Both the position numbers and the translations under genes were made by a program. From an uncultured Spirochaetales bacterium (lineage in GTDB: Bacteria; Spirochaetota; Spirochaetia; CAZWAS01), in the NCBI GenBank assembly GCA_964631915.1, contig CAZWAS010000008.1, forward strand, positions 6,854 through 55,499: 48,646 nt of DNA, given 5' to 3'. The stretch's first letter is position 1. Each line of letters starts with the position of its first letter. Under the pieces are notes generated by a model. It was given only the letters and a program-made list of their open reading frames with translations. It had not been told where the DNA came from and did not search any database. Shown here one piece after another: positions 14,224 to 15,872 of this stretch.

Positions 14224-15321
14224 TTATGCGGTTTTAACGGCGCCACTTATGAGGAGAACATGGAGTGCAAGGCCGAAAATCGCCGATCCTATGAGAAAAG
14301 GCAAGGACATCCTGATTTCCTTTTTTTTTTCTGTGTGGGACGTGAATGTGGTAGCGCCGGTGAAGTTCAGCGCTATGAAAGCAGAAATCGGCGTGAGCAA
14401 CAACACGTTCGCAACGATCGGTACCCAAGAACGGGAATATGCGAAGCTGATACCCGCGGCCCACATGCATCCGAGCACAACCCCTTTCAGGGCGAAAGCC
14501 CTCCCGGGAATAAACGGAAGAAGCAGCGGAATCCCTACACACCCGACAAGTACGGCTCCGAGGAGCGGCACCATATCGAGGAATATCCGCACATCCACCG
14601 TACCCCGGAGAATCAGTCTAAAGAACACGAGAAACACTGCCGCTAGTGCGAAATATTTCATGCAGCTCACCAATTCCACAGGGATGAGCACCACCCTGTC
14701 TTTGAACGTAAATGGCACTTCCCGCATCTCCTTCGTGGTTTTCATGTTGTTGTTCAGAAACTTCGCAATATCTTTCGCGAGCACCGGGCCGTAAACAACT
14801 CTGAAGCCGGTCGCTTTTGCAACATCGTGAGCACTCACTCCTACTGCTCCGAGCTGGGGAACGATGAGCGTCCTGTGGCTCACGATATCCATCAGCCCTA
14901 CGGATCGGATTTTGCGTACCAATTCTTCCGTGCCGAAGGTGCCTTTTCCCGCAGCGCACCAGACATTTATTCCCTTCGTATCGAGAACCAGAATCCATGC
15001 ATCTATGCCCATGAGCCCTTTTCTAAGCGAATCGAAGCTCAGTTTGTAATTTGCAGTCACGAATACCGGCGCGGTTTTATCCGGGTTTCCCGTACAGTAT
15101 AGCCCCGGTTCCACGGAATATCGCATTCTCCCTATGGACCAGCGCACTTTCCATGCTGAGAAAATGTCCGTTCCGTTTAGGGCTGTCTTGACCCTCGGAA
15201 CATTTCCCGACTGCATTGCAACAAACCCTGCAAACCAGGGCTTATCCGTAACATATTCCTCGCGTATCCGCTCCGGCTTTGTCTGGCCCGAACAGCAGGA
15301 TTGCATTTTCACGAAATTCAT
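14224..15321 (-). CDS. hgcA: HgcA, corrinoid methyltransferase of the mercury methylation pair
   Basis: Cap-helix signature LDTKGINVWCAAGKGTFGTEELV, flanking SVEPGLY...ANYKLSFD...IVPQLGA, and a C-terminal block of hydrophobic helices. ATG 15321 is preferred because it forms an ATGA overlap with the MarR stop. Confidence 0.9.
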   Translation of the reverse strand: MNFVKMQSCCSGQTKPERIREEYVTDKPWFAGFVAMQSGNVPRVKTALNGTDIFSAWKVRWSIGRMRYSVEPGLYCTGNPDKTAPVFVTANYKLSFDSLRKGLMGIDAWILVLDTKGINVWCAAGKGTFGTEELVRKIRSVGLMDIVSHRTLIVPQLGAVGVSAHDVAKATGFRVVYGPVLAKDIAKFLNNNMKTTKEMREVPFTFKDRVVLIPVELVSCMKYFALAAVFLVFFRLILRGTVDVRIFLDMVPLLGAVLVGCVGIPLLLPFIPGRAFALKGVVLGCMWAAGISFAYSRSWVPIVANVLLLTPISAFIALNFTGATTFTSHTEKKKEIRMSLPFLIGSAIFGLALHVLLISGAVKTA

Positions 15322-15830
15322 ACATTTCCCCTTGCACCTGAATCTTCGCAGCATGGAGGCGGCTCTCCGTAAGAACAGGCCGTTTTCCTCTTTATAAGCG
15401 CATCCCCTATAAGCGCCATGCTTTCGAGCACTTGCATTCTTTTTTCTTTCGGGATGACAGAAAACAGGCTCAGTATGAACTCATCCCAGTAGGCATTGAT
15501 AGAATCAGCAACACGTTTTCCCTTATCCGTCAACCGTATCACTACAGAACGCCTGTTTTCCGGATTTTCGGCGCGGGTTACGAGCCCCTGATCCACCATT
15601 CCATCTATGGTTCGGCTCAGGGTGCTCTTGTCGAGCCTCAACACAGGAGCAATATCCTTCAGCGAAGGATTTTCCAGCCTGCAGAGTTCCATGAGCGCAT
15701 GGCATTGTGCCATGGTAACGCCGCAGCAACAGGAATCCTCGGAGATTCTCCCGAATATTTCCCGCTCCACAACCCGAAGCTGTGTTCTGAACGCTCTGAT
15801 ATCTGTAAGATGTATAGATTCGTTATTCAT
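15318..15830 (-). CDS. MarR family transcriptional regulator, cysteine-rich
   Basis: wHTH core (LDKSTLSRTIDGMVDQGLVTR...NRRSVVIRLTDKG). It has 8 Cys, including a CCCGVTMAQCH block and a C-terminal PPPCCED. ATG 15830 (MNNESIHL) is preferred over the TTG at 15845. Confidence 0.85.
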   Translation of the reverse strand: MNNESIHLTDIRAFRTQLRVVEREIFGRISEDSCCCGVTMAQCHALMELCRLENPSLKDIAPVLRLDKSTLSRTIDGMVDQGLVTRAENPENRRSVVIRLTDKGKRVADSINAYWDEFILSLFSVIPKEKRMQVLESMALIGDALIKRKTACSYGEPPPCCEDSGARGNV

Positions 15831-15832
15831 GG

Positions 15833-15872
15833 TTGTATTATACAACTATTGTATTTCACAACTCATTGTTTG
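15833..15872. promoter_or_regulatory. palindrome/dyad array abutting the MarR start (candidate operator plus -10)
   Basis: TTGTATTATACAA is a perfect palindrome at 15833-15845. It is followed by ACAACTATTGT and ACAACTCATTGT (alternating TTGT/ACAA). On the minus strand a TATAAT lies 6 nt before the ATG, with no Shine-Dalgarno sequence. Confidence 0.35.

Follow-up and report, generated by a model that had tools for sequence, protein, structure and literature searches.

A cysteine-rich, MarR_ars-like regulator encoded directly upstream of hgcAB in an uncultured Spirochaetales bacterium: conserved tandem operator, arsenic-linked relatives and a predicted metalloid switch

The control of hgcAB expression and the true purpose of the HgcAB proteins are central questions in mercury biogeochemistry. 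To our knowledge, the single hgcAB regulator tested so far is an ArsR-like protein that is confined to the Desulfovibrionaceae. Here, we asked which regulator governs hgcAB in a stretch of 48,646 nucleotides (nt) from an uncultured Spirochaetales bacterium (GenBank assembly GCA_964631915.1, contig CAZWAS010000008.1, positions 6,854 to 55,499, in the following called the window), and to which signal it might respond. In this window, a gene for a cysteine-rich MarR-type protein directly precedes hgcA and hgcB. A preliminary description, made by a model from the sequence alone, had proposed a thiol-based metal- or redox-sensing switch that is coupled to hgcA. The analysis presented in the following makes it probable that the protein is a MarR_ars-type repressor of marR-hgcAB, which would be released from the DNA by a trivalent metalloid.

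The three genes are arranged head to tail on the minus strand and comprise the following elements:

15830-15318, minus strand: marR, 170 amino acids (aa), MarR_ars-type repressor (predicted function)
15321-14224, minus strand: hgcA, 365 aa, corrinoid protein of mercury methylation with the motif GINVWCAAGKGTF
14211-13909, minus strand: hgcB, ferredoxin with 2x[4Fe-4S] and a CC tail at the C-terminus
15321-15318, minus strand: ATGA overlap of marR stop and hgcA start, read from the sequence
15333-15327, minus strand: AAGGGGA, Shine-Dalgarno-like sequence for hgcA within the marR 3' end, 5 nt before the hgcA ATG

Both hgc gene products exceeded the cut-offs of their NCBIfam equivalog models, with 421 bits for HgcA (cut-off 275) and 124 bits for HgcB (cut-off 99). 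The translated HgcA satisfies the cap-helix motif N(V/I)WCA(A/G)GK with GINVWCAAGKGTF, and the translated HgcB ends in ...SSSSGCCS. As already described, the marR stop codon TGA (15320-15318) and the hgcA start codon ATG (15321-15319) overlap as ATGA. The ATGA and the AAGGGGA sequence are kept in a short metagenome contig with an 84%-identical homologue (L082), which carries a CTG where the window hgcA has its next downstream ATG, and for this reason position 15321 is favoured as the hgcA start. HgcA homology in other loci extends to residues 1-5 of the protein starting there (tblastn). Translation of hgcA may thus be coupled to that of marR through the ATGA overlap together with the internal Shine-Dalgarno-like sequence. 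Within hgcA, a run of ten A (14330-14321, minus strand) encodes TEKKKE, where relatives have SGVxKE; the reading frame is intact, and the run is a likely slippage or sequencing-error site. Rfam and tRNA scans of the whole window gave no matches.

Relatives of the regulator were collected by a protein search, which yielded 256 relatives, and by a scan of GTDB with one genome per species, which yielded 297 stretches, and the best 80 were taken together with their flanks. In 62 of the 80 loci, marR is immediately followed on the same strand by hgcA and hgcB (tblastn with the window HgcA and HgcB). These loci belong to at least six phyla, and two of the 80 are cut by a contig end. Among the hosts are Spirochaetota, Acidobacteriota, Bacillota (Syntrophomonadaceae), Desulfobacterota, Syntrophorhabdaceae and Calditrichia, as well as Opitutales (Verrucomicrobiota), Wallbacteria and metagenome-assembled genomes (MAGs) of Bacteroidota, and additional members beyond the 80 loci share the order marR-hgcA-hgcB. 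Regulators linked to hgcAB in other phyla are only 40-50% identical to the window MarR. In about 19 of 60 loci, hgcA could start at a codon with a 4-nt overlap to the marR stop, and most of the others show different overlaps or distances of some tens of nt. The linkage is thus strongly conserved, and the order with its overlaps or short gaps supports the earlier view of MarR-hgcA-hgcB as one unit. Two loci deviate in their own way. In L057 (6219-8420) the order is hgcA, hgcB, marR, which is unlike every other locus, and no operator was detected upstream of its marR. In Candidatus Contubernalis alkalaceticus (CP054699.1; L081, 6464-7972), hgcA downstream of the MarR gene seems to be split or truncated (257 aa, followed by an open reading frame (ORF) of 198 aa), and transposase and integrase genes follow the hgcA pieces, so this may be a decaying hgcAB locus.

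In order to deduce what type of regulator is encoded, we analyzed its sequence and its predicted fold. The window protein matches the Pfam MarR family (PF01047) with 55.2 bits (cut-off 24.6) over residues 38-96. Its length of 170 aa and its eight cysteines (C34, C35, C36, C43, C50, C152, C160 and C161) had been reported correctly, and the strings SEDSCCCGVTMAQCH and GEPPPCCEDSG are present. Conservation was counted in an alignment of 80 sequences, which comprises the window protein and its relatives from the GTDB loci; an alignment of 50 sequences agrees. C43 is kept in all 80 sequences, Q42 and H44 in 79 each, C35 in 77, G37 in 76 and C36 in 74. The letters of the CCC triplet and the following QC had been read correctly, but C34 is kept in only 7 of the 80 sequences, and the triplet is thus rejected as a functional motif. 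Instead, the conserved signature is CCG-x4-QCH (C35-C36-G-x4-Q42-C43-H44) plus the C-terminal CC. Such a CC pair occurs within the last 35 residues in 61 of the 80 relatives, the remainder having mostly CxC or a single cysteine; the vicinal cysteine tail emphasized earlier is therefore a recurrent trait.

The AlphaFold2 model of the window protein (mean predicted local distance difference test score, pLDDT, 87.4; predicted template modelling score, pTM, 0.73) presents a canonical MarR protomer. Helix alpha1 is modelled at residues 8-31, and the loop 32-39 carries the CC pair. Helix alpha2 (40-51) has Q42-C43-H44 at its N-terminus and is followed by alpha3 and alpha4 (57-80), the wing (84-100), and alpha5 and alpha6 (102-152), whereby C160/C161 lie in a flexible tail of low confidence. 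In a Foldseek search against the PDB, all 50 matches listed were MarR-family structures, including MepR, MexR, YusO, Rv0880, AdcR, ZitR and E. coli MarR, and no ArsR protein was among the top matches. The best PDB match by sequence is 3S2W. Membership in the ArsR/SmtB family was rejected, since there is no PF01022 match at E<=0.01 and the fold is that of MarR. An OhrR/MgrA-type redox MarR was rejected as well, because the OhrR model reaches 21.8 bits against a cut-off of 200 and the cysteines are located in the alpha1-alpha2 loop and alpha2, not in alpha1. The same applies to an AdcR/ZitR-type zinc MarR, for which the family model gives 25.2 bits against a cut-off of 175. C35, C36, C43, H44 and C160/C161 are the predicted sensing residues.

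A hint on the nature of the signal came from relatives with a different gene cargo. The following genes were found downstream of marR:

L013, L033 and L038: ArsM, arsenite methyltransferase (NF008823; 376, 366 and 289 bits; cut-off 263)
L058 and L063: ArsN2 (137 and 147 bits; cut-off 125)
L038 and L076: ArsN1-like acetyltransferase, below the cut-off
P0117: GNAT acetyltransferase, ArsR, ArsD and ArsA
P0110: GNAT acetyltransferase and ArsP
P0112 and P0336: methyltransferase, in P0336 additionally a GNAT acetyltransferase
Bacillus cereus ATCC 10987 plasmid: ArsP-family permease, next to a MarR protein with CCGV, a C-terminal SSCC and Ser at position 43

A tblastn search of plasmids returned only distant members from Bacillus, Priestia and Clostridium with about 40% identity. 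Compared to the 40-50% identity between the window MarR and hgcAB-linked regulators of different phyla, ArsM-linked regulators and hgcAB-linked ones from other Acidobacteriota are far closer to each other, with 76-78% identity within this phylum, and the ArsM-linked loci carry the same operator (see below). Thus, the regulator-operator cassette is conserved while its cargo alternates between hgcAB and arsenic genes. This bears directly on the possibility that the protein is a dedicated sensor of Hg(II) or methylmercury, in which the CC pairs bind Hg(II), as is presumed for the HgcB tail, and the substrate or product of HgcAB tunes methylation. Hg(II) binds to vicinal-thiol sites very tightly, the gene lies directly before hgcAB in most close relatives, and its vicinal thiols and CC tail resemble the tail of HgcB. 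However, nearly the same regulator with the same operator drives arsM, and no mer genes were found beside family members in the loci examined, which makes a mercury sensor quite improbable.

The MarR_ars subfamily has been described before by Yu et al. (2021, bioRxiv 10.1101/2021.08.12.456183). Its genes adjoin arsV, arsN and arsP, and its members share three conserved cysteines, Cys36, Cys37 and Cys157. AdMarR_ars of Achromobacter deleyi As-55 (CP074375.1) binds to its own promoter as well as to that of arsV. The protein leaves the DNA in the presence of As(III) or Sb(III), whereas the C36S, C37S and C157S variants are unresponsive (Yu et al., 2021). The window protein resembles MarR_ars in its fold, in the vicinal cysteine pair just before alpha2 (C35/C36, corresponding to Cys36/37), in the cysteine of the C-terminal tail (C160/C161, corresponding to Cys157), and in being encoded by a presumably autoregulated gene directly upstream of its target. 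Moreover, its relatives adjoin arsN and arsP, and 3S2W, on which the MarR_ars homology model was built (Yu et al., 2021), is the best template for both. It differs in its cargo, which is hgcAB (arsM in close relatives) and not arsV, arsN or arsP. Neither hgc, mercury nor arsM is mentioned by Yu et al. (2021), who also do not give the sequence of an operator; for the clade of the window protein, the present analysis defines a tandem palindrome of 19 bp. Neither a search started from an ars-linked Clostridium regulator nor one started from the Contubernalis protein retrieved any of the species that the study names (e.g., Dethiobacter, Geotalea). Judged by motif position, gene contexts and the template 3S2W, the window MarR probably belongs to MarR_ars or is a sister to it. 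The proposal of a thiol-based metal(loid) switch therefore gains support, since the cysteine pair and the C-terminal cysteine match those of the As(III)/Sb(III)-responsive MarR_ars proteins and relatives occur in ars operons.

Two further signals have to be weighed against a metalloid. MarR proteins commonly use cysteine oxidation, as known from OhrR, MexR and E. coli MarR. It could be that the window protein senses redox state or reactive sulfur, whereby disulfides or polysulfide bridges among C35/C36, C43 and the tail cysteines release the repressor in a similar way as in OhrR, MgrA or MexR. The many cysteines with their two vicinal pairs, the MexR and MarR structures among the fold matches, and the hosts, which judged from the locus titles are anaerobes of sulfidic habitats, would fit such a sensor. 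On the other hand, the relatives adjoin arsenic genes and not genes for peroxide or sulfide detoxification, the protein departs from OhrR in score and cysteine position as given above, and the tested relative AdMarR_ars answers to As(III)/Sb(III) via the same cysteine pair; a redox sensor is thus unlikely. The second signal would be the status of a structural or sensory metal centre, Zn(II) or Fe-S, for which C35, C36, C43 and H44, perhaps joined by the tail CC, would be the ligands, comparable to the zinc sites of AdcR/ZitR or to a cluster site of the 3Cys-1His type. AdcR and ZitR are MarR-fold metal sensors with ligands in the alpha1-alpha2 region and in alpha2. Both are among the fold matches of the window MarR, the AdcR profile aligns over residues 38-116, and the invariance of His44 and Gln42 equals that of the cysteines, which is not required for As(III) binding alone. 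However, the ligands of AdcR and ZitR are His and Glu with the metal as co-repressor, the AdcR model stays far below its cut-off, no zinc-uptake or Fe-S assembly genes occur in the neighbourhoods, and the wider ArsP-linked branch has no C43. In addition, adjacent cysteines are poor joint ligands of one cluster iron. Thus, we give little credit to a metal centre as the sensing device.

The repressor is predicted to bind directly in front of marR. This region reads, on the coding strand from 15876, TTGACA-AACAATGAG-TTGTGAAATACAA-TAG-TTGTATAATACAA-CC-ATG and contains the following elements:

15876-15871, minus strand: -35 hexamer TTGACA of the predicted marR-hgcAB promoter (promoter scan), with the same -35/box layout in most related loci
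15861-15849: operator box 1, TTGTGAAATACAA, which differs from the family palindrome at 2 positions; the -10 hexamer TACAAT (15853-15848) is formed by its right half
15845-15833: operator box 2, the perfect 13-bp palindrome TTGTATAATACAA, which contains TATAAT (15842-15837) and ends 2 nt before the marR ATG

The perfect palindrome had been noted directly before the ATG, and it is the sole exact copy in the 48.6-kb window. An operator scan of the 150 nt upstream of marR (the first inspection covered 100 nt), allowing up to 3 mismatches to this palindrome, detected the site in 68 of 79 loci, namely in 52 of the 60 with hgcAB linkage and in 16 of the 19 others, whereby in several of the apparent misses the site overlaps the provisional start codon. 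In 60 related loci, the density amounts to 7.85 sites per kb within these 150 nt compared to 0.174 per kb elsewhere, a difference of about 45-fold that goes beyond chance. The palindrome usually occurs twice, directly after a TTGACA hexamer. Bases outside the 13-mer that was used for selection are conserved as well, namely T, A, G on the left and C/T, T, A/G on the right, which yields the 19-bp operator consensus TAGTTGTATAATACAACTA. The tandem boxes are spaced 16 bp from centre to centre in 15 of 18 pairs of the related loci, and the two boxes of the window are likewise 16 bp apart. Two ACAAC-N-ATTGT dyads that had been described here did not hold up: their arms comprise only 4 nt, and they represent junctions between the two operator boxes and the flank. 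They were rejected as separate sites in favour of the two tandem 19-bp palindromes. Between the window and L082 there is no similarity upstream of the -35 hexamer, and similarity begins exactly with it.

The distribution of the operator was further compared among the regulator types that precede hgcA in metagenomes (see below). It is present at 6 of 8 loci with this MarR class and at 7 of 7 with a second MarR class, but gave at most 2 weak hits at 9 ArsR-type loci and none at 4 AbrB-type loci. Thus, the operator follows the MarR protein and not hgcA. Being conserved across phyla and tracking the MarR gene, the upstream palindromes support the autoregulation that had been assumed before.

With respect to the transcript start, two layouts have to be considered. 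It had been pointed out correctly that a TATAAT lies 6 nt before the ATG, at the centre of box 2, and that marR is not preceded by a Shine-Dalgarno sequence. If this TATAAT served as the -10 element, the transcript would start at the A of the marR ATG and be leaderless, as suggested previously. In the window, this element lacks both a suitable -35 hexamer at a distance of 16-18 bp and a TGn extension. The better candidate, which had been overlooked, is TTGACA-17-TACAAT (15876-15848); it agrees with the consensus in 11 of 12 positions and is the only strong promoter-like site in 13700-16300. From this promoter, transcription would be expected to begin near 15841, which would leave marR a leader of about 11 nt that lacks a Shine-Dalgarno sequence. 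In L012, by comparison, the TATAAT in the centre of the box is preceded by a TTGACA at a distance of 18 nt, a layout that would give a truly leaderless transcript. Among the 29 loci (window included) with the start-proximal box no more than 12 nt from the start codon, a Shine-Dalgarno-like sequence is found in 2, compared to 36 of the 44 loci in which this distance exceeds 12 nt. A start codon that lies close to the box and has no Shine-Dalgarno sequence thus recurs among the loci and is no accident of the window. It is shared by the second MarR class, whose ORFs read LYNTTM, corresponding to TTGTATAATACAACCATG.

Classical autorepression by MarR proteins places bound dimers over the promoter and the start site. 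In this context, the data fit the following mechanism, which as a whole we consider probable. The genes marR, hgcA and hgcB would form a single autoregulated operon. MarR dimers would bind to the two tandem 19-bp palindromes, with box 1 placed between -35 and -10 and box 2 covering the predicted transcript start, so that the bound dimer pair would block RNA polymerase. A trivalent thiophilic metalloid might then be bound by the C35/C36 pair together with a C-terminal cysteine (C160/C161), with C43 and H44 at the start of alpha2 as probable additional, clade-specific residues of the ligand site. Likely ligands are As(III), Sb(III) or methylarsenite. Ligand binding would change how the winged helix is connected to the dimerisation domain and take the repressor off the DNA, whereupon marR, hgcA and hgcB would be expressed jointly. 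From the layout of genes, operator and promoter we infer repression and co-transcription with high confidence, while for an arsenic-type ligand, which we deduce from the cysteine motif and the arsenic-gene contexts of the relatives, our confidence is somewhat better than even.

It might also be that the conserved gene order reflects inherited synteny only, with MarR regulating itself and hgcAB being expressed constitutively from a promoter inside marR. Indeed, hgcAB has long been considered constitutive in the cited literature, and about three quarters of the hgcA loci in the metagenome sample (see below) have no such MarR upstream. However, start/stop overlaps or very short gaps recur across phyla, and the consensus scan detected no promoter-like site in the marR coding strand (15318-15830), where the preliminary description had considered that a separate promoter might drive hgcA. 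Besides, the unit of regulator and cargo is kept while the cargo swaps to arsM or arsN, as would be expected of a regulatory cassette, and in published metatranscriptomes lower expression of hgcA is associated with 'arsR-like' regulators in front of the gene (Peterson et al., 2025). Mere synteny is therefore very unlikely.

For the metalloid-released repressor itself, several observations speak against it or at least against a simple transfer from MarR_ars. Q42-C43-H44, which is invariant in the clade of the window protein, is not listed among the conserved residues of MarR_ars, and the ArsP-linked B. cereus member has Ser at position 43. In view of these two points, the hgcAB/arsM clade may bind something different, or bind it differently. 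Furthermore, the C-terminal CC is missing in 14 of 61 hgcAB-linked members, the AlphaFold2 model, which was built on the 80-sequence alignment, is that of a monomer, and no canonical ars efflux or reductase gene adjoins the operon in the window.

In order to see how widespread the regulator is from the side of hgcA, a reverse survey was carried out from HgcA in metagenomes of the Joint Genome Institute, which gave 69 informative hgcA loci. This MarR lies upstream in about 10 of them and a second, more divergent MarR class (RCC..DEAxC) in about 7, while a true ArsR-type protein (ELCAC motif, C-terminal GCC) is found in 9 and an AbrB-type protein with CC pairs in 4. Thus, this MarR is one of several cysteine-rich regulators that were recruited to hgcAB and is present at a minority of hgcA loci. 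The second MarR class (L093, L133, L134, L147 and L150, also L132 and L158) is characterized by RCC..DEAxCxxVTxxQF without QCH and by a C-terminal CxCC, and the same operator abuts its ATG exactly as in the window. The ArsR/SmtB-type proteins before hgcA (102-125 aa; L087, L090, L107, L110, L112, L114, L130, L131 and L142) carry the canonical arsenite-site motif ELCAC/EKCAC; many of these loci stem from termite-gut samples, and most of the proteins have a C-terminal GCC tail that echoes the CC tails of MarR and HgcB. The AbrB/SpoVT-like proteins (90-111 aa; L096, L111, L124 and L153) have conserved cysteine pairs (SCC, xCC), which suggests that they may be thiol-based sensors too. They probably correspond to the regulator that was called 'antitoxin-like' by Zhang et al. 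(2023).

A regulator at this position has been noticed before. McDaniel et al. (2020; PMC7438021) described 112 genomes in which a conserved 'putative transcriptional regulator' of unspecified type immediately precedes hgcAB, and they also detected transcripts of this gene. Zhang et al. (2023; PMC10349881) mentioned a MarR (COG1846) in front of hgcA for Dethiobacter alkaliphilus AHT1 and Geobacter (Geotalea) daltonii FRC-32. These regulators have the same position and phylum spread as the window MarR, and its minority share at hgcA loci agrees with the 112 genomes. Three of our loci (L035, L039 and L078) derive from the permafrost MAG set used by McDaniel et al. (2020), and it is likely that their regulator is this MarR family. 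Neither study gives a motif, an operator or a link to MarR_ars or arsM, whereby McDaniel et al. (2020) did not type the family, and no connection between MarR_ars and hgcAB was found in the literature searched. The preliminary description had left open whether this type of regulator was known. It had been published as MarR_ars in 2021, and the presence of a conserved regulator before hgcAB had been recorded in 2020 and 2023; new here are the MarR_ars-like typing, the extended motif, the architecture of operator and promoter, and the swap between hgcAB and arsM as cargo.

The closest functional parallel is ArsR2, an ArsR-like regulator that makes hgcAB arsenic-responsive in Pseudodesulfovibrio mercurii ND132 (Gionfriddo et al., 2023). 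Like the window MarR, it is a cysteine-rich winged-helix repressor encoded directly upstream of hgcAB, with which it is co-transcribed, and its response to arsenic parallels the one predicted here. In contrast, it is a member of the ArsR/SmtB family (PF01022) with four cysteines at positions 47, 49, 86 and 88 and is known only from Desulfovibrionaceae, whereas the window protein is a MarR by its fold and gives no match to PF01022. The window MarR thus has another fold than ArsR2, yet it is arsenic-type in appearance and attached to hgcAB in many phyla. As a fold-unrelated, arsenic-type regulator that stays with hgcAB across phyla in spite of the cargo swap with arsM, it provides independent support for a link between arsenic and mercury. 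If this link were confirmed, arsenic or antimony levels would predict methylmercury production in sediments, peat and rice paddies. The 19-bp operator, the predicted promoter and the five candidate sensing residues are supplied as testable items. A bolder reading is that hgcAB in many phyla truly belongs to a regulon for the response to arsenic/antimony (or organoarsenicals), that one MarR_ars-type regulator with its operator controls either hgcAB or arsM as interchangeable cargo, and that the native role of HgcAB is tied to trivalent metalloids. We regard this as doubtful at present. If true, HgcAB could be, for example, an anaerobic cobalamin-dependent counterpart of ArsM, and mercury methylation would be a side reaction that is switched on by arsenic exposure.

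Some neighbouring genes of the window deserve mention. A gene for a CLC-type chloride channel with CBS domains (13896-12052, minus strand) begins 12 nt past the hgcB stop, is preceded by GGAGG and may be co-transcribed with marR-hgcAB. As a member of the conserved unit it was rejected, since a CLC homologue is absent from all other loci. On the other side of the operon, a divergent gene (16132-16779, plus strand), located about 270 nt from the operator boxes, encodes a flavoprotein of the NADPH-dependent FMN-reductase family with a CTACGKC motif. It was rejected as ArsH because of the missing match to the ArsH model (NCBIfam). Likewise, a glyoxalase-family gene was rejected as ArsI, as it matches only the generic glyoxalase/VOC family of Pfam and has no vicinal cysteines. 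A GNAT acetyltransferase (11481-11969, plus strand) resembles ArsN1 (arsinothricin resistance) and phosphinothricin acetyltransferases with 137 bits, which is below the cut-off of 170 bits. It shares 30-34% identity with the GNAT proteins that follow MarR-ArsM in L038, L041, L062 and L076 and may be a faint trace of arsenic genes near the operon. Finally, a radical SAM protein of 509 aa is encoded at 9864-11393 (plus strand), and its 43%-identical homologue in L029 (421-1893) lies directly upstream of the marR-hgcAB unit in divergent orientation.

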